Assembly: GCA_029210695.1 (NCBI GenBank)
Contig: JARGFH010000018.1
Span: 1-62,820 of the forward strand
DNA from: Acidimicrobiia bacterium
GTDB taxonomy: Bacteria; Actinomycetota; Acidimicrobiia; Spongiisociales; JAHEDJ01
Direction: 5' to 3'
DNA length: 62,820 nt
The notes beneath the pieces were generated by a model. The model saw only the letters and a program-made list of their open reading frames with translations. It was not told where the DNA came from and did no database searches. The translations under genes were made by a program, and so were the position numbers. The first letter of the stretch is position 1. Each line of letters starts with the position of its first letter. Below, piece after piece: positions 8,988 to 47,417 of the stretch.

Positions 8988-9100
8988 GAAGGCGGGAACA
9001 GTAGCCATGCGCCGAACCAAACCACAACGCCGGGTGGCATGGCGGGCATACGTCGCCTTTATACTCCCGGCCAGCTTGGTTACACGGGAGTGATCTGTCC

Positions 9101-12525: not shown

Positions 12526-13473
12526 ATGATTCCTTTGTCCGACATCGAAGCCGCCAGACACAGAGTCGCGCCGTACATCGTCGAGACGCCGGTCGTCTCG
12601 AGCCGGACCCTCTCGGACCAGCTCGGAACCAGGGTGCTGCTCAAGCTGGAGCTCTTCCAAAAGACCGGGAGTTTCAAGCCGCGCGGCGCCGTCAATCAGC
12701 TCCTTGCCTACGACGGACGCGCCGACGGCGTGGTCGGAATCAGCGGTGGTAACTTCGCCCAGGGCCTCGCCTACGCGGCGGGCCGGCTCGGTGTCCCGGC
12801 CCGGGTCGTAATGCCCGAATCCACTCCCAGCAACTACCTCGATGCCACCCGCGGCTACGGAGCCGACGTCGAGCTGGTCCCAACCATCGCCGACGCCTTT
12901 GTTCGTTACGGCGAACTCGTCGCAGAGGGGTGGGGTCCGATGCACCCCTTCGATGATCCGGACATGATGGCCGGGAACGGAACGCTCGGGCTCGAACTCC
13001 TGGAACAGGTGCCCGAGGTCACGGACGTGATCGTTTCCATCGGTGGCGGAGGGTTCATGGCCGGTGTCACGTCGGCGGTCAAGGCCTGCCGTCCCAACGC
13101 ACGGATCTGGGGTGTTGAGACCGAGGGAGCCGATGTGATGGCGCGTTCGCTGGCGGCCGGATCCCCTCAGACCATGACGCCGACTTCGATCGCCAAGACT
13201 CTGGGGTCGCCGTACGCGGGAGAGACAGCCTTTGAGATCGCCCGGGACCACCTCGAGGAGGTTGCCGTGGTCCCCGACGCGGAAGCGGTCGATTCGATGG
13301 TGTTCCTGTTCGAACGAGCCAAGCTCGTCACCGAGCCCGCCGCCGCCTGCACTCTCGCCGCCGCCCGGAGGCTACGGGGGCGCTTCGAGCCGACGGGAAC
13401 GCTCGTTCTGATTCTCTGTGGCGGCAATCTCTCCGTTGCAGATCTGTGTGCTTTCACCGATCGGTTTGGTTGA
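12526..13473 (+). CDS. PLP-dependent threonine/serine dehydratase family protein
   Basis: LKLELFQKTGSFKPRG PLP-lysine motif, SGGN, IGGGG, EPAAA, LCGGN. Confidence 0.9.
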   Translation: MIPLSDIEAARHRVAPYIVETPVVSSRTLSDQLGTRVLLKLELFQKTGSFKPRGAVNQLLAYDGRADGVVGISGGNFAQGLAYAAGRLGVPARVVMPESTPSNYLDATRGYGADVELVPTIADAFVRYGELVAEGWGPMHPFDDPDMMAGNGTLGLELLEQVPEVTDVIVSIGGGGFMAGVTSAVKACRPNARIWGVETEGADVMARSLAAGSPQTMTPTSIAKTLGSPYAGETAFEIARDHLEEVAVVPDAEAVDSMVFLFERAKLVTEPAAACTLAAARRLRGRFEPTGTLVLILCGGNLSVADLCAFTDRFG

Positions 13474-13563
13474 GATCCGGCATACCGGGCCGACAGGGTC
13501 CTTGTAATCGTCGTCCGGAACGAGTTTGCTACTGAGCGTGACGCCAGAGGAGGCCTTGACCCT

Positions 13564-14871
13564 GTGACCCGCTCGTATGTCCTCGACACCTGCGTGATCC
13601 TGGCCGATCCGAATTCGGTCCTTCGTTTCGATGAGCACGAAGTGATTCTCCCGCTCGTCGTGATCGAGGAACTCGACCGTATGAAGATCCGGCACGATGA
13701 GGTGGGCGCCAACGCCCGATCAGCTCTCCGGTTGCTCGAACGCCTCGGCGCTTCGCGTGCCGGCGGTCTGCGGGATCCGGTGCCACTGCCGAGCGGCGGC
13801 GCATTGAGGATCGAGCTCAACGGGATCGTGTCGCCTCGCCTCCCTGAGGTGTTCGATCCGACCACCCCTGATCACCGGATTCTCGCCACATGCCTGAACA
13901 TGTCAGATGCGGGGGGCGATCCGGTGCTCGTCACCAAGGATGCTGCGCTCCGGATCAAGGGCGCTCAGATGGGCGTACCAGTTGCGGACTACCGGGCAGA
14001 CACCATGCCCGTCGAAGAGCTGTATACGGGCATCCGCGAAGTGTCGGTCGACCGGGGCGTCATCGACCAGCTCTTCGAGGACCACAAAGTGTTGCTACCG
14101 GGCGTCGAAGCGCTGATCAACCAGTACGCCGTGTTGCGGTGCGGGTCGCAGTCGGCCCTGGCCAGAGTCGTCGAGATCAATCCAGAAACGGTCGTCAATC
14201 GCGTCCATGGTCATCCCAGGGCGTTCGGCGTTGAACCGAAGAACATGCAGCAAATCCTGGCTCTCGATCTCCTCCTCGATCCCGACGTTCCTGCGGTGTC
14301 GATCATGGGCATGGCCGGCGCCGGCAAGACGTTCCTCGCCCTGGCCGCCGCCCTCGAGCAAGTAGTCGAGTCGAATCGCTATCGGCGGGTCGCCGTGTAC
14401 CGGCCGCTGGTGGCGGTGGGCCGTCAGGAGGTCGGATTCCTGCCCGGCGATCTCGATGAGAAACTCGAACCCTGGATGGCCGCCATCTACGACAACTTGC
14501 ACGCGCTGTTCAGCGACCTCTCCTCGGATGATGCCCGCGACGCGGTCGATGAATTGCTCGAACGAAACGAAGTCGAGATGGCGGCGGTGACGTTCCTGCG
14601 AGGTCGCTCCATCACCGATGAGATCGTGATCATCGATGAGGCGCAGAACCTCGAGATGTCGACGCTCAAGGTGATCCTGACCCGGATGGGACGCGGATCG
14701 AAGGTCATCTTCTGTGGTGACCTCACTCAGGTGGATAACCCGTATGTCTCACCGTACGGCGGGATGGCTGCCCTGATCGAGAAGTTCAAGGGGTCGTCGC
14801 TGTTCGGCCACGTAACGCTGGAGCGATCGATCCGCAGTCCGCTGGCGGAGCTGGCCGCAACGATCCTCTAG
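13564..14871 (+). CDS. PIN-PhoH family protein (PhoH2/YlaK-type)
   Basis: N-terminal PIN (VLDTCV, EELD, TKD) plus PhoH (GMAGAGKT, GFLPG, RGRS, DEAQN, GDLTQVD). Confidence 0.92.
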   Translation: MTRSYVLDTCVILADPNSVLRFDEHEVILPLVVIEELDRMKIRHDEVGANARSALRLLERLGASRAGGLRDPVPLPSGGALRIELNGIVSPRLPEVFDPTTPDHRILATCLNMSDAGGDPVLVTKDAALRIKGAQMGVPVADYRADTMPVEELYTGIREVSVDRGVIDQLFEDHKVLLPGVEALINQYAVLRCGSQSALARVVEINPETVVNRVHGHPRAFGVEPKNMQQILALDLLLDPDVPAVSIMGMAGAGKTFLALAAALEQVVESNRYRRVAVYRPLVAVGRQEVGFLPGDLDEKLEPWMAAIYDNLHALFSDLSSDDARDAVDELLERNEVEMAAVTFLRGRSITDEIVIIDEAQNLEMSTLKVILTRMGRGSKVIFCGDLTQVDNPYVSPYGGMAALIEKFKGSSLFGHVTLERSIRSPLAELAATIL

Positions 14872-34164: not shown

Positions 34165-35694
34165 ATGACTGACGACCCCACCCACCTCGGAAGTGCCGAA
34201 GTCCCGGACGAGGCCGGCCTCGCTGCGCATCCGATCACGGCGCGCCGTCTCGAGAAGCTCGGCGAGATCCGGGCTGCTGGCGGGGAGCCGTATGCCTACC
34301 GGTTCGAACGCACGGCGCTGGCCGCGGACCTCCATGCTGAATATGGAGAACTGGAACCGGGAGTCGAGACGGGTAAGACCGTGGCGGTGGCGGGTCGCGT
34401 TCTCAATGTCCGCAGCTTCGGCAAGCTCATGTTCCCGGTCGTTCTCGATCGGACCGGTCGAATCCAGCTGTTCGTTGCCAGAGACACGCTCGGGCAAGAG
34501 GAGTTCGATCGGTTCGCCGAGGTCGACGGAGGGGATTGGATCGGAGTCGAGGGCGAGATAATCACGACCAAGAAGGGTGAGCTGAGCATCCGCGTTCGGT
34601 CGTGGACCATGCTCTCGAAGTCGCTTCGCCCGTTGCCTGAGAAGTGGCACGGACTCAAAGACGTGGAGCGCCGCTACCGGCAGCGCTACCTCGATCTCAT
34701 CACCAGTGAGCAGGCCCGTGCTGTCGCACTCACGCGGGTCCAGATCATTGCCGAACTTCGCAAGCAGTTCACCGACCGAGGCTACGTCGAGGTCGAGACC
34801 CCGGTTCTGCAGGCGCAGGCAGGCGGAGCGCTGGCGCGGCCCTTCGCAACTCATCACAACGCCCTCGATGTGGACATGTACCTCCGCATTGCCACCGAGT
34901 TGCATCTCAAACGACTGGTAGTCGGCGGCATCGAACGGGTCTTCGAACTCGGCCGCATCTTTCGCAATGAAGGCGTCGACACCACGCACAACCCGGAGTT
35001 CACGACTTTGGAGGCCTACGAAGCCTTCGCAGACTACGGCGACATCATGGAGCTGATGGAACAAGTGATCGGTGCCGTTGCCGAAGCAGCGACGGGCTCG
35101 AGTCTGATCGAGTACGACGGAAAGCCGATTGACCTCACCCCACCGTACCGGCGCGCAACGCTGCTCGATCTTCTTGCAGAAGCGATCGGGCAACCGGTCG
35201 GGTTCGATTGGTCGTTGGAGCAACTGCGGGAACTGGCTGCCGGTAGGGGAATCACGCCGGAGGGAGGCTGGGGGAAGGGCAAGATCATCGCTGAGCTCTA
35301 TGAACACCTCGTTGAACCGGGTCTCTGGGATCCGGTTTTTGTGATCGACCACCCGAAGGAGACTTCGCCACTGGCCAGGATCCATCGCAACGATCCGAAT
35401 CTCACCGAGCGGTTTGAGCTGTTCGCGGGCGGGATGGAACTCTGCAATGCCTTCTCGGAGCTGATCGATCCCATCGATCAGCGGGACCGATTCGAGCAGC
35501 AGGCCCTGGCCAAAGCAGCCGGTGACGACGAGGCGCATCCGATCGACGAGGACTTTGTTCGTGCCCTGGAATATGGGATGCCTCCCACCGGCGGCCTCGG
35601 TATCGGCGTCGACCGCCTGGTCATGTTGCTCACCGACCAGACGACCATCCGCGAGGTCCTGTTGTTCCCGCACTTGAGGCCGGAGCAGCCCTAG
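34165..35694 (+). CDS. lysS: Lysyl-tRNA synthetase class II
   Basis: OB fold, LPEKWHG, YLRIATEL, FRNEG, HNPEF, YGMPPTGGLGIGVDRL. Confidence 0.97.
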   Translation: MTDDPTHLGSAEVPDEAGLAAHPITARRLEKLGEIRAAGGEPYAYRFERTALAADLHAEYGELEPGVETGKTVAVAGRVLNVRSFGKLMFPVVLDRTGRIQLFVARDTLGQEEFDRFAEVDGGDWIGVEGEIITTKKGELSIRVRSWTMLSKSLRPLPEKWHGLKDVERRYRQRYLDLITSEQARAVALTRVQIIAELRKQFTDRGYVEVETPVLQAQAGGALARPFATHHNALDVDMYLRIATELHLKRLVVGGIERVFELGRIFRNEGVDTTHNPEFTTLEAYEAFADYGDIMELMEQVIGAVAEAATGSSLIEYDGKPIDLTPPYRRATLLDLLAEAIGQPVGFDWSLEQLRELAAGRGITPEGGWGKGKIIAELYEHLVEPGLWDPVFVIDHPKETSPLARIHRNDPNLTERFELFAGGMELCNAFSELIDPIDQRDRFEQQALAKAAGDDEAHPIDEDFVRALEYGMPPTGGLGIGVDRLVMLLTDQTTIREVLLFPHLRPEQP

Positions 35695-35696
35695 CA

Positions 35697-35731
35697 GGCC
35701 TATGGCCTATGGCCCATGGCCTATGACCCAC
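35697..35731. repeat. GGCCTAT-type heptamer array
   Basis: GGCCTAT GGCCTAT GGCCCAT GGCCTAT GACCCAC just after the lysS stop. Confidence 0.8.
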
Positions 35732-35878
35732 AGACGGCAACACCCACTCACGTGACTAGATATGTCGTGCAGCGTGTTGCCTAGTCACTTAAATGGTTAC
35801 CTCGTGAACTATCTTTCGCGTTAAGTCCCGTCTCCGGCCTCCGACTGGCGCTATATGAGCCCAGGGAGGTACTTCGAG

Positions 35879-36769
35879 ATGCGAAAAGGAATGGCGCTGC
35901 TGGCAGGGGTTGCCATAGCCATTGTGACGATCAACCCCGTCCAGGCTTCCTCGATTTCATTCGATCCGGCCGGCGGAAGTGCAGAAGCCGTTGCGGCCGT
36001 GGACAGCGCCATTGGCGTCTTTGAAACATCGTTCTCCGCCAGGGCCTCATGTATCGGCTCGGCGTCAGTCATCTTCGAATCACTGTCGGGCCGCATGGGT
36101 GAGTACCGGACGGCTGAGGCAGTCGTAGCGGTCAACCCGGATCGTGAGGCCGGGACGATGGCGGCCACGGTCTACCACGAACTCGCCCACCACGTAATGC
36201 TCACCTGCCGGGCGCATCGGGATTCCGACTTCATGGCCGCCTTCTATGCGGCACAGGACATTCCCGTCGATCGTGGTTGGTTCGACGGTTCGGCGGGTTG
36301 GAGCGGAATTCCGGCCGAGCAATTCGCCGAGGCGGCCGTCGTCGTTGTGCAAGGAACTGCCGGTGGAGGGATCGCTGTCTCGAGCGAAGCCGTCGATACC
36401 GTGCGGCGCTGGCTGAACGGTCAGCCGATGCCGGTGGCTGCGACGCCGGTGGCTGAAGAGAATGCCGAAAAGCAGGACGCCACCCCCGCACCCGCAGGTG
36501 CATCCGTCACGGTGGCAACCACAACTGAGCCTTCGCCTGCTCCAGCGGCAACTGAAACCGCGGTCGCTCCCGTCGGGGCCGCTCCACTCCCAACGACTAC
36601 AACCGAAGTTCCACAGCCGGCCCCGGTCAAGGCGGCGGCCACACTGGCCTCACCCGCATCGCCGGCGCCCGAGGCCATTCAGGTGGTTGCCGCCGTGCCC
36701 GTAATCGATCGTCCGGCACTTCAAGGGCCGGCCGGCGCCAATCGGGGCGGTTGGATGAGGCCCGAGTAG
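35879..36769 (+). CDS. Secreted HExxH zinc-metallopeptidase-like protein with Pro/Ala/Thr-rich tail
   Basis: GGGAGG RBS; signal peptide ending VQA; YHELAHH plus downstream EQFAE; low-complexity C-terminal third. Confidence 0.7.
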   Translation: MRKGMALLAGVAIAIVTINPVQASSISFDPAGGSAEAVAAVDSAIGVFETSFSARASCIGSASVIFESLSGRMGEYRTAEAVVAVNPDREAGTMAATVYHELAHHVMLTCRAHRDSDFMAAFYAAQDIPVDRGWFDGSAGWSGIPAEQFAEAAVVVVQGTAGGGIAVSSEAVDTVRRWLNGQPMPVAATPVAEENAEKQDATPAPAGASVTVATTTEPSPAPAATETAVAPVGAAPLPTTTTEVPQPAPVKAAATLASPASPAPEAIQVVAAVPVIDRPALQGPAGANRGGWMRPE

Positions 36770-36919
36770 GGCGTCGTGTCACCGGACCTAGCCCCGAGGA
36801 CTCCCCTAGGGAAACGCACCGGTCCGTCCGGCGTGTCCGGATCCGCACCTAGAGGACCGGCGTCGACTACCGGTCTCCCTCGAGTCTGCTCGTGCGGCCG
36901 GCGGCCGGTGCGGCCGGGA

Positions 36920-37501
36920 TCACAGTTCAATGATGAGCGGGCTGCCCGGCGAGGATCTGGTCCGCAGCGCTTCGACTTGTTCGAGAAGGGAACCTGCCCG
37001 ATGAAACGGTCCCGGTTTGATGGAGACCAGCGTGAAGGCCGGATCCGTCGGAACCAGGCTCGCTCGCTCCGACTCCATTTGCAGGATCGCTCGCAGTCGC
37101 TCGAGGAGTACCTGATTTCCCTCGATCTTGAATTCCCGCAACACGGCCGCGAAGGTCGTGTGGTCGACGTGACCGACCCTGTCGACCTTGCGCAAGGCGG
37201 CCTCCAGCACGGCCTCCAGGTGCTGCTGGATGCCCTGGTGACGTTCGGCCGCGCTCGTGCTGATCGCCTGGAGGCCTGGAATCTCGACGGCGAGAATGGC
37301 GAAGGGGTCGTTGCGGCGAGTCAACCAGTCCAGGGCATCCTGGATGGCGTCGATCACGCCGTTGCGGTTGAGCGTTCCTGTGCTCGGGTCGATCGGTGAG
37401 AGCACGTCGAGCGCCAGGCGAAATTGCCGCAGCTCTTCCTCGCGCTCGGCAAGGAGCCCCTCGAGTTCGTTCGGGTCGCGAATCGGCGGCTGTGGTTCCA
37501 T
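36920..37501 (-). CDS. Degenerate GGDEF-domain protein with N-terminal coiled coil and RxxD I-site
   Basis: IDPSTGTLNR wide-turn motif; LRKVD-RVGHV-DHTTF in place of RxxD-x5-GGDEF. Confidence 0.75.
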   Translation of the reverse strand: MEPQPPIRDPNELEGLLAEREEELRQFRLALDVLSPIDPSTGTLNRNGVIDAIQDALDWLTRRNDPFAILAVEIPGLQAISTSAAERHQGIQQHLEAVLEAALRKVDRVGHVDHTTFAAVLREFKIEGNQVLLERLRAILQMESERASLVPTDPAFTLVSIKPGPFHRAGSLLEQVEALRTRSSPGSPLIIEL

Positions 37502-37655
37502 CCGTAATGATGAGGATAGTGGTGACTGGGGGGGCCCGGTCCGCTTATCGGTTGCACGGGACGGCCGACCGGGAAAGACGTGCCGGCCGAGTTGCGCAGA
37601 GTGACCCCGATATGCCGCCGGTTGGGACCAGTAGTCGACGTCCGGTGAGTTGGAT

Positions 37656-38453
37656 ATGAAGGTTCTACGGGAGATCCAGGCCTATTGCACACGGCACGGA
37701 CTCGACGGGCGCATCAATTCGGTAGATGATCTCGATTGGGGGATCGAATCCGATGGAGCAGGGTGGCGGGACGGGTGCACTCGAGCCAACCCGGGGCACA
37801 GCCTCCATGATGAGGTCAGCGGTTGGATACAGGAAGGGAATGATTCGGGAGAGGGACTGGCCTGGATCGAACTCGCCGATCTCCGGCTACGGGTCCTGGT
37901 AGAAGAACTCCAACGGGCGCGGCATCTGGCGACTCGCCTGCAAGGCGTGCTCGACGAGGATCAGCGGACCGCCGCCCGGCAAGAGATCAGCGTTCTAGCC
38001 GAGTCACTTCGAGAGGCGACCACCACGAGCATCGGCGGTGGGCCTGGGTCCCGGTCCGGCGCTGCTTGGGTCTACTGCAGCGGTTCGGGTCGTGTGGTCC
38101 GCAGGACGACGGCCAAAGAGCCGGTCGGCGATGACCTCCCCGATTGTCCCGACCCGGTCCGCCTCCTCGAAGGTCTCATCGATGCGCCGGAAGCCGTCGG
38201 TGCCTTTGAGCGATGCATCGACGAAGTGGGCAGGAGTTTTGCCGGGCTCTCGGATGCCCGCAGGCGTTTGATGGTCAGTCTCTCACGCAGCGTGATCGAG
38301 CAAAGCAAGATCCAATCGCGCTTGCCCGGATTCGACCACGCCTACGCGTCTGCGGTAATCGGTGAACTCCAGACGCAGACGGTCGTCTATCAGGTGACTC
38401 TCGAGGTGCTGTCAAGAGTACTTCAGCCGTCGTTGGTCGATTTTCTCCGCTAG
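37656..38453 (+). CDS. Diverged FlgL/flagellin-family protein
   Basis: GRINSVDD, GLAWIELAD...LQRAR, C-terminal YQVTLEVLSRVLQPSLVDFLR resembling the FlgL terminus. Confidence 0.7.
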   Translation: MKVLREIQAYCTRHGLDGRINSVDDLDWGIESDGAGWRDGCTRANPGHSLHDEVSGWIQEGNDSGEGLAWIELADLRLRVLVEELQRARHLATRLQGVLDEDQRTAARQEISVLAESLREATTTSIGGGPGSRSGAAWVYCSGSGRVVRRTTAKEPVGDDLPDCPDPVRLLEGLIDAPEAVGAFERCIDEVGRSFAGLSDARRRLMVSLSRSVIEQSKIQSRLPGFDHAYASAVIGELQTQTVVYQVTLEVLSRVLQPSLVDFLR

Positions 38454-38556
38454 ACCGGTTTGTGGTACATCGAAAGCGACGGTTCTCGTTGTCGATTACG
38501 GCTTCACCGTGGCGGGATCGGCATGCACGATGAGGGCCCGACCTTTTTCCCGGCTC

Positions 38557-39009
38557 TCACCCATCCAGGGGAGTGCCTGCGAGTCGCTCGATGCCGAGTT
38601 GCGCAGCCTCCAACCGTTCACGGGTTGACTGCTCGAGCGATGGCCTGAGCGAATCGATCTCATTCGTCAGAGCTACGAGTTCATCGAGGCGTTGTCCGAG
38701 AGCCTGTGCGTGATCGGGGTGGCCCCGGCTGATGATCGTGCGTAGGGAGAGGTCGTAGTCGTTTATGTGCCATTCCTCGGCGATTCCCGCAACAATCAGC
38801 GCACGCATCATCTCGGTGGTACCGAGCTGGTCTTCGAGGTTCGAGACCTGCCTGGCCGCGGAAGCCAGAGAGCGATCGGGGTGTGACAGGACCAGTTCAC
38901 CGACTTGGCGGAGTCGGGCCAAGAGGCTTTCGAGGATATCGCGTTCCCTACGCAGGATCTCCAGGAGCGGCTCGACCCCGGGTTGCAGCATGAGCATCAG
39001 TTCGTTCAC
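38557..39009 (-). CDS. flgN: FlgN-like flagellar export chaperone (actinobacterial type)
   Basis: LRRERDILESLL, IAEEW, LSLRTI, LVALTNEI patterns; divergent from a sigma-28 gene; GGAGG RBS. Confidence 0.7.
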   Translation of the reverse strand: MNELMLMLQPGVEPLLEILRRERDILESLLARLRQVGELVLSHPDRSLASAARQVSNLEDQLGTTEMMRALIVAGIAEEWHINDYDLSLRTIISRGHPDHAQALGQRLDELVALTNEIDSLRPSLEQSTRERLEAAQLGIERLAGTPLDG

Positions 39010-39056
39010 CTGAGGCCTCCATCGAATCTAGGCCGGCGCGGTTTCCTGCATTTGGC

Positions 39057-39083
39057 CTGTCGGCGGGCCGGCCGCCTGTTCAA
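39057..39083 (-). promoter_or_regulatory. Candidate sigma-28 promoter of flgN
   Basis: Minus strand TTGA-N15-GCCGACAG (or TGAA-N14). Confidence 0.45.
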
Positions 39084-39147
39084 GCTCCGGAGTAATAGCT
39101 CGCCTTTTCGCCTCGAAATCGGAATGTGACTAAACGCGAATAGCACT

Positions 39148-39175
39148 CAAGAACCCTGCATCCGGGTGCCGATGA
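39148..39175 (+). promoter_or_regulatory. Candidate sigma-28 promoter (autoregulatory) upstream of the fliA/whiG-like gene
   Basis: CAAG-N16-GCCGATGA versus consensus TAAA-N15-GCCGATAA. Confidence 0.6.
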
Positions 39176-39238
39176 CTAGAAAGTAGCTACAACAAAGAAC
39201 TAGTTACACACCAGGGACAACCGGACAAGGACAAGATC

Positions 39239-40075
39239 ATGGCCTATTCGGACCGGAATCAGCTTGCCACCGATCACCTCGAGCTCGTGGGTCACATCGT
39301 CGCAGAAGTATCGGTTCGCTATCCGCGTCACGTCGATCGCAACGAGTTGTGGAACGCCGGGGCACTCGGCCTTGTCGAAGCCTCCCGACGATTCAATGAG
39401 GATGCCGGCATTCCGTTTGCCCGATACGCCGCTATCCGGATTCGCGGAGCCATCATCGATTCCACCCGGACGCGCGACTGGGCGACGCGGTCGGTGCGGC
39501 GCAACCTCCGTGAGATCCAGCAGGCGACCTCGGATTTCGAAGAGCACACCGGCCGCCGCCCCAGCGACGATGACCTGGCCACGACGCTCGGCATCACCAC
39601 CATGGAGCTCTCCGCCCAGAAAGCCCAGGAGGGCCACAGCACCCTCCTGCATCTCGATCAGGAAGATTCCGATGAGTCGCCCTTGCGGGATCAGGTCGCC
39701 GAGCAGCGCTCACAGGCTCTCCCGGAGCAGGCGCTCGAGCAACGTGAGCTGTTCGGTACCCTCAAGACGGCAATCGAGCTTCTTCCATCGACGCAAGCAG
39801 AGGTTGTCACTCGCTACTACCTGCAGGGAGAATCCCTTCAGGACATTGCAGACGATCTGAAGGTCACCGAGGCCAGGGTTTCACAGATCCGGGCCGAGGC
39901 GCTGGCTGCCATCCGGGCATACTTTTCGACTCTCTACGAGGGTCTTCCGGAAGTTGCGGCCGCGACACCCGGCAGGCGGGCGCGAGCGTCATACCTGTCG
40001 GTCATGTCGGAGAACACCACGTGGCGCACACGCCTGGATGGCGGTCGCCGCCCGGATAACACGCTCGCAGTCTGA
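39239..40075 (+). CDS. FliA/WhiG-family (sigma-28) RNA polymerase sigma factor
   Basis: G.LGLVEA..F......F..YA..RIRGAIID..R..DW..RSVR region 2; region 4 VTEARVSQIR; actinobacterial-type C-terminal extension. Confidence 0.9.
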   Translation: MAYSDRNQLATDHLELVGHIVAEVSVRYPRHVDRNELWNAGALGLVEASRRFNEDAGIPFARYAAIRIRGAIIDSTRTRDWATRSVRRNLREIQQATSDFEEHTGRRPSDDDLATTLGITTMELSAQKAQEGHSTLLHLDQEDSDESPLRDQVAEQRSQALPEQALEQRELFGTLKTAIELLPSTQAEVVTRYYLQGESLQDIADDLKVTEARVSQIRAEALAAIRAYFSTLYEGLPEVAAATPGRRARASYLSVMSENTTWRTRLDGGRRPDNTLAV

Positions 40076-40172
40076 GGCAAAAGCTTCCGTTTCGCTCCAC
40101 GCAGATGACGGCCCCGGCTCGTGGCACCTGCCAAATCCCCCGACGATCAGCCGAATCTGATCTGGTGATCAG

Positions 40173-41645
40173 TTACGTATGGTCCGAGCCTTTCGTCGTC
40201 CGCAGATCGTCCGCAGTGAGATCGATCACCGCAGGCCGGGTGGACTCGACCGAAGGAGTGAAGCCGCGGCGATCCAGGCTTCCCCACGTGTGGTCGCCGC
40301 GCAACGCCGAGACTATGCCCTTGATGCGCCACCACGTTGACAGCTGCCGGTATCCGAAATTCTCGATCAGCGCCACCACGATCATTCGCCCCAAGTCGGC
40401 CGGTCTCGTGTACCGGCGAAACGACAACTCCTCCAGGGCCACCGCTGCTACCGACAGCGCAACGCCGGCAGCCACCGCCAGCGCTAGGAAAGCCAGCACA
40501 TATTGCAGAGGGGCATTTCCGGTGACCGCAGCCCACAGGAAGAACGCAAATCCGACGGCTTCGATGATCGGCCCGATGACTTCAAAGATCGTGTAGTAGG
40601 TGAATCCGATCAGACCGGGCGGACCGTAGCGCGGGTTGCCGAACATCCGCCGGTGGCGCCAGAGGGTCTGCACCAGACCCCGCTGCCACCGGTCACGCTG
40701 CCGGCCGAGGCTCTTGAGGTCTTCCGGGGCTTCCGTCCAGGCAACCGGGTCCGGCACGAAGTTGATCCGGTACTTGATCTCTTTCTCCCGGCAATATCGA
40801 TGCAGGCGGACGACGAGTTCCATGTCTTCTCCGACTGTGTCGGTGGAGAACCCGCCGACCTGCGCAACGATCGCCCGCTTGAACACACCGAATGCCCCGG
40901 AGATGATGAGGGTCGATCGCAGCACATCCCAGCCGACCCGGGTGGCGAGGAAGGCACGGAGGTATTCGATGACCTGAAAGCGGGCTACCAAGTTCGTCGG
41001 TAGCAACACCTGGCGAACGATGCCACCCTCGACGATGCAGCCGTTGGCGATGCGAACGATTCCTCCCGCCGCGATTGTCGTCCGGTCCTCGAGAAACGGG
41101 CGAACGAGGCGGGGCAGTGCCTCCGGTTCGAGCAGCGTGTCGGCGTCCATCGCGCAGAACAATGGAGTCCGGGCGTGGTTGAGGCCGGCGTTCAGGCTGT
41201 CGGCCTTGCCCCCGTTTTCTTTGTCGATTACCCACAGGTTCGGATGGCGGCCCGCCCGGTATACCGCCCGCACCGGAGCAGTTGAGAGCGACGAACTCGG
41301 GGTGCGTTCCGCCGTTTCCAGCTCGAAGGCCTCTATCAGGTGATCGAGTGTGCGGTCCGTTGAGCCGTCGTTCACGACGATGATCTCGTAGTCCGAATAC
41401 TGCAGGGTGAGTAGTGATCGGACCGACTCGACGATGCCGGCGACCTCATTGAACGCTGGCATGACCAGGGTGATCGGCATTCCCCCGGCTGCGTTGACGA
41501 GATCGCTGATGTGGAGTGACTCGAGGCGCCCGACGTATTTCTTGAGATGGAGGAAGGCCAGAATGCTCGTGGTCATGTAGATGACATTGAGAGCCAGGAA
41601 ATAGGCGAGGATCACTACGCTGACGACGGTGATCGCAGTGGTCAT
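40173..41645 (-). CDS. Processive GT2 polysaccharide synthase (PgaC/IcaA-like)
   Basis: NDGSTD, GGKADSLN, DAD, GEDM, QRDRW; N- and C-terminal TMs. Confidence 0.92.
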   Translation of the reverse strand: MTTAITVVSVVILAYFLALNVIYMTTSILAFLHLKKYVGRLESLHISDLVNAAGGMPITLVMPAFNEVAGIVESVRSLLTLQYSDYEIIVVNDGSTDRTLDHLIEAFELETAERTPSSSLSTAPVRAVYRAGRHPNLWVIDKENGGKADSLNAGLNHARTPLFCAMDADTLLEPEALPRLVRPFLEDRTTIAAGGIVRIANGCIVEGGIVRQVLLPTNLVARFQVIEYLRAFLATRVGWDVLRSTLIISGAFGVFKRAIVAQVGGFSTDTVGEDMELVVRLHRYCREKEIKYRINFVPDPVAWTEAPEDLKSLGRQRDRWQRGLVQTLWRHRRMFGNPRYGPPGLIGFTYYTIFEVIGPIIEAVGFAFFLWAAVTGNAPLQYVLAFLALAVAAGVALSVAAVALEELSFRRYTRPADLGRMIVVALIENFGYRQLSTWWRIKGIVSALRGDHTWGSLDRRGFTPSVESTRPAVIDLTADDLRTTKGSDHT

Positions 41646-42709
41646 GCGACCTTCTCCATGATCGCTTCTCGGGCCAGCGCCGCCATTGGGTGGCCGCTTT
41701 CCACCATGGCCTCGAGCCGCGCCGCGCCACCCGCCTCCACCATGGCTTGGGCCGAGTTGATGGCGACCCAGGGTTCGGGGTCTGCCATTCCTCGCTCGAG
41801 CAGCTCGAGGTCGACCGCTTCGCCGACGGTCCCCAGCACCCGCAAGGCCAGGGCTCGCAGCACGAAGTCCCTGCTGGTCGCGCAGCTCCTGGCGATCGGC
41901 AGGTGCTCCGGTCCGCCCACCGCTCTGAGCAGACGTAGTGAAGCCGCTGCGAGTTCCCGGTCGGGAGTTCCGTTGAGGATCCCGGCTGCAACGTCGGCGG
42001 CGGCGGGGTCGGTGAGGAGGCTGAGGGCGTCTGCGGCAACGGCCCGATCGAGGGGGTCACGGTTGCTCCGCAGGTACGACCGGAGTGCCGGAGCCACCTC
42101 GGACCCCATGGAGGCCAGCATGCTGGAGAGGAAGCGGCTGTTCCACCTGGCATAGCGGTGGAGATTGAAGAGGACGTCGTCGATGTACGCCGGCTGGCGC
42201 GATGCTGAGAGCGTCCGTGCCGCCACCATCGAAACGAGCGCTGAGGGATCATCGAGTGCCCCGGCGACTATCGGGCCGTATTGCGCCATACCGAGGGTCG
42301 CCAGCGTTTGCACGGCGAAGGCGCGCCGCTCAGGGTTCCGGGCCTTGAGGTCTCTCACGATCATCGGCAGGTGTGGTGTGGCGAGGTCGACGACCACCCG
42401 GCGGTCGCCGCCGGACAGGAGGCGGGCATAGCGGACGAGGAACTTCAGGAAGTGTCTCCTCGAGCGCGATGTGACGGTGGCGTGAAGCCGGGAGGCGGGG
42501 ATGGATCCGTCGATGACGTCGAGGAGCAAGGGCTCCCAGCTCGCCTCGTAGGAGTTGTAGCGGCGAGCACGAAGCACGTTGCGGATCCGCATTGAGAAGG
42601 CCACTCCGGCCAGATACAAGACGACTGCGACGATGGCGAGCGTCGACCAGAGCACGACGGTGATCAATGAACCCGTCGCCCACGCTGGAGAGGTTCCGCC
42701 GGACCACAT
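41642..42709 (-). CDS. Membrane-anchored HEAT-repeat protein
   Basis: N-terminal TM; repeats such as RRAFAVQTLATLG, ALDDPSALV, LRALALRVLG, MADPEPWV; ATGA overlap with GT2. Confidence 0.82.
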   Translation of the reverse strand: MWSGGTSPAWATGSLITVVLWSTLAIVAVVLYLAGVAFSMRIRNVLRARRYNSYEASWEPLLLDVIDGSIPASRLHATVTSRSRRHFLKFLVRYARLLSGGDRRVVVDLATPHLPMIVRDLKARNPERRAFAVQTLATLGMAQYGPIVAGALDDPSALVSMVAARTLSASRQPAYIDDVLFNLHRYARWNSRFLSSMLASMGSEVAPALRSYLRSNRDPLDRAVAADALSLLTDPAAADVAAGILNGTPDRELAAASLRLLRAVGGPEHLPIARSCATSRDFVLRALALRVLGTVGEAVDLELLERGMADPEPWVAINSAQAMVEAGGAARLEAMVESGHPMAALAREAIMEKVA

Positions 42710-42721
42710 GACGGTCGGCGG

Positions 42722-43549
42722 CTACTTCGCCAGCAGACGCTGGACCCGGAGGGCGAGCTCTGTCGGCGAGAACGGCTTCAGGATGTAGTCATCGGCTCCG
42801 CCGGACAGTGCGCGTACAACGTCCTGTTCGGCGCCCATCCCGGTGAGCATTACCACGGGAGTTGAGGCCAAATTCGGGTCTTCCTTGAATCGGCCAAGGA
42901 GTTCGAAACCGTCCATTCGTGGCATCTTCACGTCGAATATCGCCAGGGCATAGGGTTGGGGACCGGCTGCCTGAGCAGCTTCGAGCGCGCTCTGGCCATC
43001 CGGATGATGCACGACCACATAGCCCTCCCGTTGAAGGCGATGGATGATCAGCCGGTCGGTGAGGGTGTCGTCTTCGGCGAGAAGGATCGTGCGCCGGTCA
43101 CCGGTTGCTTCAGTTTGGATCTGCACTCTGTCACCTCCTTTCGCCTGTGCATCCGATCGAAGCAGTCTTGCAGTATCGAGGGTCAGTTGGCGGTCATCGT
43201 TCCTGGTGTCGGCGGCGAGACCCGCGGAGAAGCTGACCATCACGTCCGGGATATCTGCCCGGTTCCTGACCCGAAGGCGCGCCGTTTCCAGGAAACCGGC
43301 TGCTTCAGTCCGGTCGAGGTCGGGGAAAACGCAGACGATTTCGTCACCTACGCCGGGGAAACGTGTGGCCGGGGGTTCGAGGTGGGCGGCCAGCAATTCG
43401 TCCACCAGTTGCGCGGCAGTTTCTGTGTCGACCGGGGTCGCCGAGCCTTCCGAGGGGAACGCTTCGGGCATGATCGACGCTACCGTCATCAGCTGCCGCT
43501 TCGATGAGTGCGGGCGCGGCGGCTCGGTGCGGGCGCGGTCGTCGATCAC
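42722..43549 (-). CDS. Degenerate GGDEF-like domain plus C-terminal receiver (REC) domain
   Basis: GVGDEI...SFSAGLA...AQAKGGDRV; REC: AEDD, FDVKMP, MLTG, DDYILKPF. Confidence 0.8.
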   Translation of the reverse strand: MIDDRARTEPPRPHSSKRQLMTVASIMPEAFPSEGSATPVDTETAAQLVDELLAAHLEPPATRFPGVGDEIVCVFPDLDRTEAAGFLETARLRVRNRADIPDVMVSFSAGLAADTRNDDRQLTLDTARLLRSDAQAKGGDRVQIQTEATGDRRTILLAEDDTLTDRLIIHRLQREGYVVVHHPDGQSALEAAQAAGPQPYALAIFDVKMPRMDGFELLGRFKEDPNLASTPVVMLTGMGAEQDVVRALSGGADDYILKPFSPTELALRVQRLLAK

Positions 43550-43658
43550 GGGGCCGCCTCGCGCCCGATCGGGCCCGGAGTGCCCCTTCTGTTGGGGCTG
43601 ATCCGTTCAGTCGTGTGCGTGCGCATGATCGAGTCCGTCCGGTTGCGGTTGTGGACTC

Positions 43659-43685
43659 CTGTCGGCCGATCCCGCCGATAGCTTA
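43659..43685 (-). promoter_or_regulatory. Candidate sigma-28 promoter of the REC-HEAT-GT2 operon
   Basis: Minus strand TAAG-N15-GCCGACAG, consensus spacing. Confidence 0.6.
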
Positions 43686-43723
43686 TGGCTTATGGAGAAG
43701 AGGCGTTGGCCCGCGCCAAACGG

Positions 43724-44725
43724 CTAACCGGCCGATCGCCCCGCAGCCACCCGGTTGATGAGGTAGCCCCCGAGCGAGTTCAGGACGTCTTTCGCAGGTG
43801 AATCTGCCAGGTCGGCGATGGCGTTCCCGGCGACCTCTATCCGGCGGGACGCTTCATCGAGAGCGCTCTCCACGTATCCGCCTGCCCGCACGAGGTCAAT
43901 GACCTCCGAAACAGATTCCTGGGGATAAGGCCGGGGGCGGGCCAGCATCTCGCCGATCCGGCTTCCATCTGGACCTTGTAGCGCCGAGAGCACTGGCAGA
44001 GTGAACTTGCCCTCCGAAATGTCGGATCCGGCCGGCTTGCCGAGAAAATCGTCGGTGGCAACGAGATCCAGTGCGTCGTCACTGATCTGGAAAACGATGC
44101 CCAGCTCCCAGGCCCATCGGCTGAGGCGTTCCACATCGTCGGGAGACGCGTCCGCGGCCATGGCGCCGAGCCGGGCAGATGTGCGGATCAGGCTTGCCGT
44201 CTTTCCCTCGATCACCCGGAAATACTCGTCCGTGCCGTGGTGGATGTCCCAGTCGAGTTGGAGTTCCAGGGTCTGGCCTTCGACCAGTTCGGCGTAGGTC
44301 CTGGCCAGGATCTCGACCGCCCGCTGCCCCAGTGTGGCGGCCGCCACCTCAGATGCCCGCGCCATCAAGAAGTCGCCGGCCAGGATGGCAACGGTGTTGC
44401 CCCAGTTGGTGTTTGCGGAGTCTGTGCCGCGACGTGTGGTCGCTTCATCGATGACGTCGTCGTGATAGAGGCTGCCGACGTGGATGAGTTCGACGGCGAC
44501 GGCCGCGTCGATTGAGCGCTGATCGTCGGCCGGGCCAAACTCCGCGGCGAGTTGGGCCAGGAGGGGGCGGAAGCGCTTGCCACCGGCGATGAGAAGGTGC
44601 TGAGCCGCTTTGGTGAGGAACGCGTCACCCGATTGCGATACCTCGAGCAATCGCGTCTCGACGCGTTCGAGCCGCTGCCACACCGACGGCAGTGGAACGA
44701 GATCTTCGAGGGTTGGAGCGTCCAT
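43724..44725 (-). CDS. Polyprenyl diphosphate synthase (HepT/GrcC-like)
   Basis: GGKRFRP, HDDVID...RRG, GQ, KTA, FQISDDALD. Confidence 0.93.
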   Translation of the reverse strand: MDAPTLEDLVPLPSVWQRLERVETRLLEVSQSGDAFLTKAAQHLLIAGGKRFRPLLAQLAAEFGPADDQRSIDAAVAVELIHVGSLYHDDVIDEATTRRGTDSANTNWGNTVAILAGDFLMARASEVAAATLGQRAVEILARTYAELVEGQTLELQLDWDIHHGTDEYFRVIEGKTASLIRTSARLGAMAADASPDDVERLSRWAWELGIVFQISDDALDLVATDDFLGKPAGSDISEGKFTLPVLSALQGPDGSRIGEMLARPRPYPQESVSEVIDLVRAGGYVESALDEASRRIEVAGNAIADLADSPAKDVLNSLGGYLINRVAAGRSAG

Positions 44726-44921
44726 GCACGACCTTCTCAGCGGGTGCGGGTGCATGGTAGTGCGCTGCCGGTTAACGAAGCAGAGCAGATCACGCAGGTC
44801 CTGGACGGTCCGGCCGACCGGGCTTATGCAGGCCCGTCGGGTTTGGCGGGTACCGGGGTTATACTCAACTGCGCGGCCGGCGATTGGCCCGCTGGGGAAT
44901 TTGGTAGGAGGCCGAGAGACC

Positions 44922-47417
44922 TTGTTCGAACGCTTTACTGATCGGGCCCGAAGAGTTGTGGTGCTTGCACAGGAGGAGGCGCGCCTCCTCAATCACAACT
45001 ACATCGGCACCGAGCACATCTTGCTTGGCCTCATCCATGAAGGTGAGGGCGTTGCGGCCCGCGCCCTGGAGAGTCTGGGCATCAACCTCGACTCCGTCCG
45101 CCAGCAGGTGGTCGAGATCATCGGGCAGGGTCAGCAGGCGCCGAGCGGGCACATTCCGTTCACGCCCCGCGCTAAGAAGGTTCTCGAGCTGAGTCTGCGC
45201 GAGGCGCTTCAACTCGGCCACAACTACATAGGTACAGAGCACATTCTGCTGGGACTCATCCGGGAGGGTGAGGGGGTTGCCGCTCAGGTTCTACAGAAAC
45301 TCGGCGCAGATCTCCCGAAGGTTCGTCAAACCGTCATTCAGCTGCTGTCCGGAGTTCAGGGCGATGATCAGCCGTCTGGCCCCTCATCCGCCAAGGGCCG
45401 GGCCGAGCAACCGACGGGTGGATCGACGATCCTCGATCAGTTCGGAAGGAATCTCACCCAGTCTGCTCGTGAGCAGAAGCTCGATCCCGTGATCGGCCGC
45501 CAGACCGAGATCGAGCGAGTCATGCAGATTCTGTCCAGGCGGACCAAAAACAACCCGGTCTTGGTGGGAGAGCCCGGAGTTGGCAAAACGGCCATCGTGG
45601 AAGGCCTCGCCCAGCGTATCGTCGCCGGCGATGTCCCGGATACCTTGACGAACAAGCAGCTCTACACGCTCGACCTGGGCTCGCTCGTGGCAGGCTCGCG
45701 CTATCGGGGTGACTTCGAAGAGCGTCTCAAGAAGGTGCTGAAGGAGATTCGGACCCGGGGCGACATCGTCCTGTTCATCGACGAGATTCACACCCTGGTT
45801 GGAGCGGGCGCCGCAGAAGGCGCCATCGACGCGGCGAGCATTCTGAAGCCGATGCTGGCTCGCGGCGAACTGCAGACCGTCGGCGCCACCACGCTCGAGG
45901 AGTACCGCAAGTACCTGGAGAAGGACTCTGCACTCGAGCGACGATTCCAGCCGGTTAAGGTCGAGGAACCAACGGTGGCCGATACCATTCAGATTCTGCA
46001 CGGCCTTCGGGATCGGTATGAAGCGCACCACAAGGTGCGATTCACCGACCAGGCGCTCGTGAATGCCGCCAACCTGGCGGATCGCTATCTCGCCGATCGG
46101 TTCCTCCCGGACAAAGCCATAGACCTCATCGACGAGGCCGGCAGCCGCATGCGAATCCAGCGAAAAGGCAGCATGCCTGAGCTCGAGGATCTCGACGATC
46201 GTATCTTCGAAGTGCGGTCTTCCAAGTTGGAGGCCGTCCAGTCGCAGCAGTACGAACGGGCTGCCCAGCTCCGCGATCAGGAACGGAGCCTCACTTCAGA
46301 TCGTATGGAACATGAGCGCGAAGCGAGCGAGTCCGGCATCCAATCAACCTGGGTGATCGACGAAGAAGAAATCGCCGAGGTGCTGGCGCAATGGACGGGT
46401 ATCCCGGTGCACCGTCTGACCGAGGAGGAAACCGCCCGGCTGGTCCGCATGGAAGACGAGCTCCACAAGCGAATCATTGGTCAGCACGACGCCATCGGCG
46501 CGGTGAGCCGGGCCATCCGCAGGACCCGGGCCGGGCTCAAGGATCCGAAGCGTCCGGCCGGGTCGTTCATCTTCCTCGGGCCATCCGGCGTCGGCAAGAC
46601 CGAGACTGCCAAAGCGCTGGCCGAGTTCCTGTTCGGTGATGAGGCCGCCCTCATCCAACTCGACATGTCGGAGTACATGGAGAAGCACACTGTGAGCCGG
46701 TTGGTCGGTTCGCCTCCCGGGTACGTTGGCTACGATGAAGGTGGGCAGCTCACCGAAGCGGTCCGGCGCAAGCCATTTTCTGTCGTGCTCTTCGACGAGA
46801 TCGAGAAAGCCCACCCGGATGTCTTCAACACACTGCTCCAGATTCTCGAGGACGGCCGGCTGACCGACGCCCAGGGTCGGACGGTCGACTTCAAGAACAC
46901 GGTCATCATCATGACCTCCAACCTGGGTACCTCCGAGCTGCGGAAGAAGGCGGTCGGGTTCCACAAGGGAAACGAAGAGGTCACATACGAGTACATGAAG
47001 GAGCGCGTGACCGAGGCGCTCAAGAAGAACTTCCGTCCGGAGTTCCTCAACCGCATCGACGAAGTGATCGTGTTCCACGAGCTTCGCAAGGATGAGGTCA
47101 AGGAGATCGTCGATCTCATGCTGGCGAGAGTCCATCAACAGTTGAAGTCACAGAGCCTTCAACTGGCGTTGTCGGATGCCGCCAAAGGTTTCCTCGCAGA
47201 CAAGGGATACGATCCGGAGCTTGGTGCCCGGCCGTTGCGCCGAGCCATACAGCGGCGCCTCGAAGATGCCCTGTCGGAACGGGTCCTGCTCGGCTCCTTC
47301 AAGGCCGGGACCACCATCGTCGTGGACGTCGACACCGAAACCGACGAGCTCACCTTTGAGGAAGTCGAAGCTCCCGATCAACCGCCTGTGGTGCTGGCCG
47401 AGTCACAAGACTCCTAA
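44922..47417 (+). CDS. clpC: ATP-dependent Clp protease ATP-binding subunit ClpC
   Basis: TTG start after [16 protein letters not shown], two N-domain repeats, [11 protein letters not shown]-like middle, GPSGVGKT. Confidence 0.97.

Follow-up and report, generated by a model that had tools for sequence, protein, structure and literature searches.

Gene content of the lysS-clpC interval

The stretch of DNA analysed here (the window) is the entire contig C91, 62,820 bases long, of an Acidimicrobiia bacterium genome (G000; completeness 97.85%). Between lysS on the left and the polyprenyl synthase and clpC genes on the right, it carries an islet that holds a sigma factor gene of the sigma-28 family, remnants of flagellar genes, genes for a degenerate GGDEF protein and a HExxH protein, and a module of receiver, HEAT-repeat, and family 2 glycosyltransferase (GT2) genes. 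A first-pass annotation had named FliA/WhiG sigma, FlgN-like, FlgL-like, HEAT, GT2, and HExxH genes between these flanks, and all of them are present. The islet is what was left when a cluster of flagellum and chemotaxis genes was deleted in situ at the lysS...clpC locus. Four genes of that cluster are left in the window, namely those for the sigma factor, a FlgN paralogue, a 5'-truncated FlgL, and the degenerate GGDEF protein.

The sigma factor gene (39239-40075, plus strand) encodes a 278-aa FliA/WhiG1-type protein with the sigma70 region 2, 3, and 4 domains. It scores 176.6 bits against TIGR02479, just below the cut-off of 189.6; in Pfam, regions 2 and 4 score above their cut-offs and region 3 falls short (23.9 against 25.3). 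The closest solved structures are WhiG (6pfv) and FliA (6pmi). The degenerate GGDEF protein (36920-37501, minus strand; 193 aa; hereafter the GGDEF-like protein) matches Pfam GGDEF at 21.5 bits, and its orthologue in the flagellated relative G007 does so at 54.1 bits. A 207-aa open reading frame (ORF) antisense to this gene (36776-37399, plus strand) was dropped because the GGDEF-like gene has family matches and frame-specific substitutions. The first-pass annotation had counted two degenerate GGDEF proteins; this one is solid, and the second is at best the N-terminus of the receiver protein (GGDEF_GdpP, E 0.03, 15 bits). Between the GGDEF-like and sigma genes lie FlgL' (37650-38453, plus strand), a 267-aa, 5'-truncated remnant of a hook-filament junction protein, and FlgN2 (38557-39009, minus strand), a 150-aa paralogue of the FlgN family.

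The module to the right of the sigma gene is on the minus strand. It begins with the receiver gene (42722-43549; 275 aa; Pfam Response_reg), whose product ends in a REC domain that follows an N-terminal region of ~150 aa, and continues with the HEAT-repeat gene (41642-42709; 355 aa; Pfam HEAT_2), whose stop overlaps the start of the GT2 gene (40173-41645; 490 aa; Pfam GT2). The GT2 protein is a processive synthase resembling PgaC and cellulose synthase; against TIGR03937, the equivalog model of the PgaC/IcaA poly-GlcNAc synthase, it scores 135.7 bits, below the cut-off of 422.3. A 26-codon frame with a conserved ATG (43549-43627, minus strand) ends in a GTGA overlap with the GTG start of the receiver gene. 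The receiver ORF of the congener G003 is longer (343 aa), and the receiver start or frame may differ between species.

On the left flank, lysS (34165-35694, plus strand; Pfam tRNA-synt_2) adjoins the islet in G001-G005, G030, and G183 as well. The HExxH gene (35855-36769, plus strand) encodes a secreted-looking protein with a Pro/Ala/Thr-rich tail and weak matches to the metallopeptidase families DUF6782 and TIGR04338. On the right flank are the polyprenyl synthase gene (43724-44992, minus strand), assigned by Pfam polyprenyl_synt and synteny, and clpC (44610-47417, plus strand; Pfam Clp_N and AAA_2). The true clpC start is probably further downstream because the ORF as listed begins within the polyprenyl synthase gene; tblastn matches to clpC in G001 start at residue 75.

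In-situ deletion of the flagellar cluster

The comparison covered six genomes of the same genus (G000-G005), which form three close pairs (G000/G001, G002/G004, and G003/G005), and samples from the order: 41 genomes for the sigma factor and the GGDEF-like protein, 121 for the HEAT protein, and 301 for the sigma factor, FlhA, and the GGDEF-like protein. Related genomes are non-independent samples, and absence from a draft genome does not prove true absence. Two genomes flagged as unpublished entered as single rows, and no claim is based on either alone: G010 was negative in the sigma, FlhA, and GGDEF-like tallies and weakly positive for the FlgM family, and G249 was positive for the GGDEF-like protein and negative for the sigma factor and FlhA. 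Ratios of nonsynonymous to synonymous substitution rates (dN/dS) were calculated by NG86 between genomes that already share the scars. The frame specificity of substitutions was judged from the corresponding ratio of proportions (pN/pS) in each reading frame.

The islet had been proposed to be a flagellar regulatory remnant without structural genes, and searches of G000 bear this out. Profile searches for FlhA, FliF, Flagellin_N, Flagellin_C, and Flg_bbr_C gave 0 matches each in this genome. For tblastn, the queries were the 30 ORFs called in the G007 cluster from fliA to the GGDEF gene, a set that leaves out FlgK, FlhB, and the hook region, which the ORF caller had missed. No match in G000 was found for 24 of these queries; FliA, FlgL, FlgN, and the GGDEF-like protein matched only the window, and the other two, FliI and an HD-GYP protein, matched ATP-synthase paralogues and HD paralogues, respectively.

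G003 belongs to the same genus and has FlhA. It is 77% complete, and its locus consists of three unjoined contigs that were assembled as one by inference from the common flanks. The first contig runs clpC-polyprenyl synthase-receiver-HEAT-GT2, 70-88% identical to the window, and then directly into fliM, fliY, cheY, cheW, cheB, cheR, cheA, cheC, and cheD. The second reads lysS-HExxH-FlbD-GGDEF-like followed by the 5' end of a true flgN, which runs to the contig end; this flgN is 43% identical to flgN of G007 and 27% identical to the FlgN-like gene of the window. The third carries a sigma gene whose product is 80% identical to that of the window, followed by an HDOD gene. When the ORFs downstream of the G003 GT2 gene were searched against G000, seven of ten had no match and three matched only receiver or kinase paralogues; all 12 ORFs of the G003 contig C354 were without a match.

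No FlhA was found in G001, G002, or G004, and their residual gene order is that of the window. The HExxH gene, present in G000, G001, and G003 (dN/dS 0.30, G000-G001), is absent from G002 and G004 by tblastn, and in these two genomes FlgL is reduced to its last 34-42 residues. G005, a close relative of G003 (lysS dS 0.21), has undergone a separate and larger deletion. In this genome, HEAT codon ~17 is joined to DNA 46 nt downstream of the lysS stop, with 91.5% identity in the junction flanks, and everything between has been removed. The order in the window, GGDEF-like (minus), FlgL' (plus), and a convergent FlgN-like gene (minus), is collinear with that in G038 and G007, in which the GGDEF gene is followed by flgN, flgK, and flgL and by a convergent FlgN2. 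By this collinearity, the FlgN-like gene of the window corresponds to the second of the two FlgN paralogues, and the deletion took flgN, flgK, and the 5' part of flgL.

A different site was seen outside the genus. The whole flagellar cluster of G007 lies between guaA and a CheA-like hybrid kinase gene (C29:89158-129915), and in G000 these two genes are direct neighbours, ~195 nt apart (C112:5907-10191, L039). The chromosomal site of the flagellar cluster thus varies among families of the order.

The two structural remnants differ in decay. Residues 61-267 of FlgL' align with FlgL of flagellated relatives at 26-31% identity, and the first ~60 residues are unrelated. The FlgL model TIGR02550 matches only the last 33 residues (31.8 bits; cut-off 127.2), neither Flagellin_N nor Flagellin_C matches FlgL' even at E<=5, and by these models FlgL' does not qualify as a FlgL. 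Its dN/dS is 0.34 between G000 and G001 (265 codons; coding frame only) and about 1.08 between G002 and G004 (34 codons). FlgN2 scores 22.6 bits against PF05130, below the gathering cut-off of 30.5, as does the syntenic paralogue of G007 (20.9); the true flgN of G007 scores 39.2. In G038 and G007, FlgN2 finds its best matches at the syntenic position, likewise convergent with flgL. Its dN/dS is 0.20 in the G000-G001 pair and 0.53 in the G002-G004 pair. FlgN2 is therefore relaxed and FlgL' is eroding.

The FlgL' remnant of G002 is an open frame of ~73 codons and that of G004 is similarly short; judged by eye, both seem to open with a flgN-like start. Derivation of the new N-terminus of FlgL' from FlgN was rejected, as blastp of the N-terminal fragment of G003 FlgN against FlgL' of the window gave no match. 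FlgN2 was also considered as an RsiG and rejected; the E-x3-S-x2-R-x3-Q-x3-D signature was not seen by eye, and a real RsiG is encoded at another locus. No FlgM gene was found in the islet. The genome-wide search for FlgM yielded only two tandem mini-ORFs of 60 and 71 aa downstream of ychF (C95:58998-59418), the C-termini of which are FlgM-domain-like (PF04316, 23.1 bits, below the cut-off); similar matches occur in genomes without a FliA-type sigma factor.

The sigma factor, its GGDEF-like neighbour, and their promoters

The sigma gene has a dN/dS of 0.079 between G000 and G001 and 0.115 between G002 and G004, and the GGDEF-like gene has frame-specific values of 0.176 and 0.134 in the same pairs. 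For comparison, dN/dS is 0.05-0.09 for lysS and 0.11 for the GT2 gene. Low pN/pS of the tested islet genes is confined to the coding frame. The sigma and GGDEF-like genes are maintained by purifying selection in the aflagellate pairs, and the sigma gene, with a dN/dS of 0.08-0.12, is not the decaying duplicate that the first-pass annotation had considered.

The orthologue in G003 is the only FliA-type sigma factor found in that flagellated genome, and in flagellated relatives the islet-type sigma goes together with late flagellar genes and promoters of the sigma-28 type. In WhiG, K57, G61, and R62 are contacts of cyclic di-GMP (c-di-GMP) (PMC12871210). All five sequences of the genus carry G, A, and E at these positions and do not class as WhiG2, which suggests that the islet sigma behaves as a WhiG1/FliA-type factor. 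A tree built from 10 sequences separates the cluster FliAs of G007, G038, and G030 as one clade (support 88/99) and puts the window sigma outside it with the lysS-locus copy of G030, in a grouping that the tree does not resolve.

A canonical WhiG is encoded elsewhere in G000, in a dprA-xerC-whiG-rpsB context on C104 (L076:2240-3028, minus strand); it scores 355 bits against NF004935 (cut-off 343) and keeps K, G, and R at the three positions. A search for rsiG, recommended in the first-pass annotation, recovered a homologue away from the islet, on C11 (L075:2802-3332, plus strand; PDB 6pfj_T, E 3e-17), with two signature motifs, the first of which carries H instead of Q. The Streptomyces WhiG precedent for a tie to c-di-GMP, invoked in the same annotation, applies only indirectly; the family likeness stands, but the islet sigma is without the WhiG c-di-GMP contacts, and the canonical WhiG and RsiG are at other loci.

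In the GGDEF-like protein of the window, the RxxD inhibitory site (I-site) is kept as RKVD and GGDEF is replaced by DHTTF, so that it does not qualify as an active diguanylate cyclase. The active-site motif is degenerate in all 18 aligned members of the family. The residues R104, D107, and G110 are invariant in the same 18 sequences, so the RxxD site is retained throughout. On these residues and on its distribution, the GGDEF-like protein is a candidate c-di-GMP receptor and a candidate partner of the sigma factor.

Its distribution follows that of the sigma factor. In the 41-genome sample, a sigma orthologue was found in eight genomes, four flagellated ones and G000, G001, G002, and G004, and the GGDEF-like protein was found at E<=1e-28 in exactly these eight; G040 gave an additional weak match (4e-11). 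Among 301 genomes, 42 had the sigma factor, 27 had FlhA, 24 had both, and 18 had the sigma factor without FlhA. These 18 span 10 genera, and 11 of them, spanning six genera, are at least 90% complete. The GGDEF-like protein is kept in 17 of the 18, and overall in 36 of the 42 sigma-bearing genomes versus 17 of the 259 others.

Gene order supports the pairing. In G030, the GGDEF-like gene lies 284 nt from a second FliA copy, far from the flagellar cluster, in the order lysS-FlbD-GGDEF-like, sigma-receiver-receiver-polyprenyl synthase-clpC. Five loci with the sigma factor and without FlhA were examined. The two genes are adjacent in G170, G068, G183, and G113, and in G075 they are ~1.3 kb apart on the same contig, with the GGDEF-like gene upstream. 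A window-type receiver gene stands beside the sigma gene in G068 and G183, and a receiver-domain gene does so in G075; lysS flanks the locus in G183 and the polyprenyl synthase gene in G075. Traces of the flagellum are seen as well, since flgN remains in G170 and 40 residues of a flagellin in G113. The locus, old and order-wide, reads lysS, degenerate GGDEF, (FlgN2), FliA/WhiG1-type sigma, receiver, polyprenyl synthase, and clpC. Comparison across relatives, which the first-pass annotation had recommended for the islet as a whole, thus upholds the sigma/GGDEF-like pair at the lysS...clpC locus and not the synthase, whose adjacency arose by deletion. The alternative wording of that annotation, a satellite locus, fits better than its first choice, a synthase mini-regulon, as the pair occupies this locus in other families.

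The motif CT(T/C)NW-N15-GCCGAC(A/G)G stands upstream of both flagellin genes of G007 and of those of G030 and G038, and the sigma-28-type promoter pattern of the clade is CTTNA-N15-GCCGACNG. These flagellin boxes resemble the published WhiG1 consensus, CTCA-N16-17-GCCGAACT (PMC12871210). The classic pattern assumed in the first-pass annotation, searched as TAAA-N13-17-GCCGAHA, has 0 matches in the window. The sigma-28-like motifs that it had placed before the sigma gene, flgN, and the GT2 operon hold for the first two, which are found in 5/5 genus genomes and share their -10 element with the flagellin promoters of three flagellated relatives. The FlgN2 promoter (39057-39084, minus strand; -10 at 39057-39064) is CTTGA-N15-GCCGACAG, 48 nt before the start codon; it is kept with a variable spacer in G000, G001, G002, G004, and G003 and has the architecture of the flagellin promoters of G007, G030, and G038. 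The sigma gene promoter (39146-39175, plus strand) is a conserved block, CTCAAGA...GCCGATGA, with GCCGATGA at 39168-39175; G003 has GACGATGA in its place. A further box, absent from the earlier annotation, is the relic promoter of the flgN-flgK-flgL operon, CTTAT-N15-GCCGACCG (37544-37571, plus strand), which now stands ahead of FlgL'. It is also present in G001 (degenerate: CCTAT and GTCGACCG), G002, and G004, and ahead of flgN in the flagellated G003 and G007.

The third motif, a candidate promoter ahead of the receiver gene, is ATAAG-N15-GCCGACAG (43659-43686, minus strand; -10 at 43659-43666), 110 nt upstream of the gene. As the first-pass annotation had noted, it has the same -10 as the FlgN2 promoter; this -10 also occurs in the flagellin promoters of G007 and G030. 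The box was found only in G000 and G001 and not in G002, G004, G003, or G005, and its -35 is outside the CTTNA pattern of the clade. In flagellated G003, CTTTA-N15-GCCGACCG lies in the last codons of the GT2 gene, just ahead of fliM (C284, L017:6250-6277), which indicates that the sigma-28-type promoter of the fliM-che operon overlaps the end of the synthase gene in this congener. The bare 8-mer occurs nine times in the window against 4.67 expected, a count that 4 of 100 shuffles reach, and is weak evidence.

Outside the islet, the gene for a GAF histidine kinase (C170:2397-4310) is preceded by the same box in G000, G001, and flagellated G003. A box of a different type, CT(T/C)AAGT-N15-GCCGATAA, precedes the major type IV pilin gene (G000 C59, L036:133-651, minus strand; G001 C41, L060), which is part of a pilB-pilT-pilC-pilin-pilin-pilD-pilM-pilN-pilO cluster. 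This box is kept, with a variable spacer, in all five genus genomes that hold the gene (G000, G001, G002, G004, and G005). A GCCGATAA-type box is also found, in 3/3, ahead of the gene for a surface protein with a CAP domain and three SLH domains (G000 C117:23027-24060, L033). There the footprint CCCTTTAGGTTT..TTGAGG.GCCGATAACC is isolated, and the remaining intergenic DNA is not alignable among G000, G002, and G004. Both boxes are more simply explained as WhiG targets, as published for Rubrobacter (PMC8325347). Retention of the islet sigma for type IV pilin and CAP-SLH expression was accordingly dropped as an explanation: a canonical WhiG is present, the boxes are of the GCCGATAA type, and G005 retains the pilin box without an islet sigma.

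Three further motifs were recorded. In the window, a PIN-PhoH gene (13564-14871) has GTTGA-N15-GCCGACAG (13464-13496, plus strand) 68 nt upstream. A short repeat that ends with GGGGAAGTACCGCTCGCCGACAG, with three copies in G000 (C134:11103-11135, C134:11961-11993, and C66:57091-57118), mimics the -10 box and raises motif counts. The flagellin 5' leaders share a near-palindrome, GTCGACATGGATGTCGA, with a central GGA (L020:7960-7990 and 9040-9070 in G007; L021:9755-9780 in G030; L023:95-120 in G038), which resembles the hairpins bound by translational regulators like CsrA.

A regulatory pair that may outlive the flagellum

The islet is probably best explained as a deletion scar that contains a selected sigma factor and a dead GGDEF protein, a regulatory pair likely to work without a flagellum. 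The cluster was deleted in situ with loss of its structural genes, which left two scars under old sigma-28-type promoters: FlgL', now preceded by the former flgNKL promoter, and the FlgN paralogue, which has kept its own. The sigma factor would still direct RNA polymerase to CTTNA-N15-GCCGACNG promoters. Its targets in G000 may be the two relic genes, the GAF histidine kinase on C170, and perhaps the receiver-HEAT-GT2 module, recruited recently in G000/G001. The GGDEF-like protein still has its I-site and may bind c-di-GMP, as the invariance of RxxD suggests, and modulate the sigma factor or its output.

Several observations weigh against this reading. Every genome is a draft assembly of metagenome-assembled grade, and the reference locus comes from the three contigs of the incomplete G003. 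The GGDEF-like family is present without the sigma factor in 17 sampled genomes. The canonical WhiG has an overlapping promoter specificity and could read some or all of the boxes, including GCCGATGA of the sigma gene. A genome-wide scan for the motif, recommended in the first-pass annotation, was run and gave counts barely above a reversed-pattern control. The strict pattern has eight sites in G000 and in G001-G005 is no more frequent than the control, and a looser pattern has 26 sites in G000 against 18 for the control. Genome-wide enrichment was therefore dropped as promoter evidence in favour of cross-genome footprints. Outside the islet, no target promoter common to the G000/G001 and G002/G004 pairs was found, and the sigma factor is under selection in G002/G004 without a conserved target seen beyond the islet.

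The favoured claim of the first-pass annotation, that a flagellar sigma/chaperone module has been redeployed as the dedicated regulator of a receiver-HEAT-GT2 polysaccharide synthase operon, is distinctly improbable. It can point to the box ahead of the receiver gene with the -10 of the FlgN2 and flagellin boxes, to the joint loss of the sigma and HEAT-GT2 genes in G005, and to receiver genes that neighbour the sigma gene in G030, G183, and G068 (a receiver-domain gene in G075). However, the box is present in 2/6 genus genomes, which are near-identical and thus give no footprint information, its ATAAG misfits the CTTNA of the clade, and the joint loss in G005 is one deletion event. The adjacency was created by deletion, as fliM through cheD stand between the GT2 and sigma genes in G003. 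Module and sigma also occur apart. HEAT homologues were found in 32 of 121 order genomes, and receiver, HEAT, and GT2 genes are collinear in 7/7 further loci of the order, one of them without a separate tblastn match for HEAT. G009, G011, and G040 carry the module and neither an islet-type sigma nor FlhA. Conversely, the sigma gene stands beside a receiver gene without HEAT-GT2 in G030, G183, and G068, and in G075 there is no HEAT or GT2 gene between the sigma gene and the receiver-domain gene, which matches REC only. The receiver-HEAT-GT2 genes are probably an autonomous, receiver-switched module that simply flanked the lost cluster.

It is doubtful, though less so, that the canonical WhiG under RsiG/c-di-GMP control reads the conserved boxes and that the islet sigma is a downstream tier or a redundant paralogue. 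G000 does encode both WhiG and the RsiG homologue, and the boxes of the sigma, pilin, and CAP-SLH genes share GCCGAT(A/G)A, which has been published as the -10 of the WhiG2 type (PMC12871210). The pilin box is kept in G005, which lost the islet sigma, and the authors of that work could not separate the WhiG1 and WhiG2 regulons (PMC12871210). However, boxes of the GCCGACNG type go with flagellar genes, standing ahead of flagellin, flgN, FlgN2, and fliM, and two independent aflagellate pairs show the islet sigma under purifying selection, which argues for its use. The same selection bears on the idea that the whole islet is inert debris of a recent deletion and has not yet decayed, which we consider very unlikely. 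FlgL' is truncated (to ~73 codons in G002, with a similar remnant in G004), the dN/dS of the FlgN-like gene rises to 0.53, and G005 shows that the whole region is dispensable. The sigma and GGDEF-like genes, by contrast, have dN/dS of 0.08-0.18 at dS of 0.29-0.53 between scar-sharing genomes, the islet promoters are conserved though spacers vary, and the pair is kept without FlhA in 17 further-sampled cases from nine genera.

The reading of the islet as a scar with a selected regulatory pair can be compared with three known systems. The islet sigma resembles the WhiG1 clade (PMC12871210) in that it belongs to the sigma-28 family, is tied to the flagellar cluster in flagellated relatives, is without the residues that contact RsiG and c-di-GMP, and coexists with WhiG2/RsiG in the same genome; the promoters are alike, and no FlgM gene was found in the flagellar cluster. 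Residues, synteny, and the 10-sequence tree would place it in that clade. It differs in that it persists after loss of the flagellar cluster and travels with a degenerate GGDEF neighbour, which the Results and early Discussion of PMC12871210 do not mention. With the WhiG-RsiG-(c-di-GMP) switch of Streptomyces and Rubrobacter (PMC8325347), it shares a sigma-28 factor with non-flagellar outputs and a possible tie to c-di-GMP. It differs from that switch in having G/A/E at K57/G61/R62, in that the true WhiG and RsiG of G000 are on C104 and C11, and in its candidate c-di-GMP sensor, a GGDEF fold with an I-site rather than a coiled-coil RsiG.

In Salmonella and Bacillus, FliA, FlgM, and FlgN form a late-gene checkpoint. 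The flagellated relatives resemble this system in having FliA-type promoters ahead of flagellin and flgNKL and a FlgN-family gene beside flgL. The islet genome, however, has no export apparatus, which makes secretion-coupled control impossible here, and no FlgM gene in the islet. Lineage-wise degenerative loss of the flagellum has been described in a class with many flagellated species, together with the absence of FlgM from later-branching classes (PMC10746217); the available passages of that paper contain neither "remnant" nor "residual" nor a sigma factor kept after the loss. Almost all flagellar clusters of actinobacteria lack FlgM, and the regulator of WhiG1 sigmas and their control without FlgM are open questions (PMC12871210; Denis et al. 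2026 preprint). Among the papers listed on flagellar FliA in Acidimicrobiia and on degenerate GGDEF proteins, sigma-28, and anti-sigma factors, no title or abstract opening dealt with a GGDEF-like partner of a FliA-type sigma.

A wider proposal, which we rate as unlikely at present, is that the sigma factor and the degenerate GGDEF protein would constitute a self-standing c-di-GMP-responsive switch, the counterpart of RsiG for WhiG1-type sigmas, which has outlived the flagellum in at least nine genera and been rewired by lineage, in G000/G001 to the GAF sensor kinase and possibly to receiver-HEAT-GT2.

Loss of a flagellum is ordinary, and most of the islet is scar. The value lies in a natural series of deletions down to what selection keeps, and what it keeps is a sigma factor and a dead GGDEF protein with a conserved predicted c-di-GMP-binding site, a remainder repeated in several genera. 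The locus also warns against reading neighbourhood as regulation, since the synthase adjoins the sigma gene only through the removal of about one cluster of genes. For the control of WhiG1-type sigma factors without FlgM, the pair offers concrete candidates, with the FlgN paralogue a weaker one.

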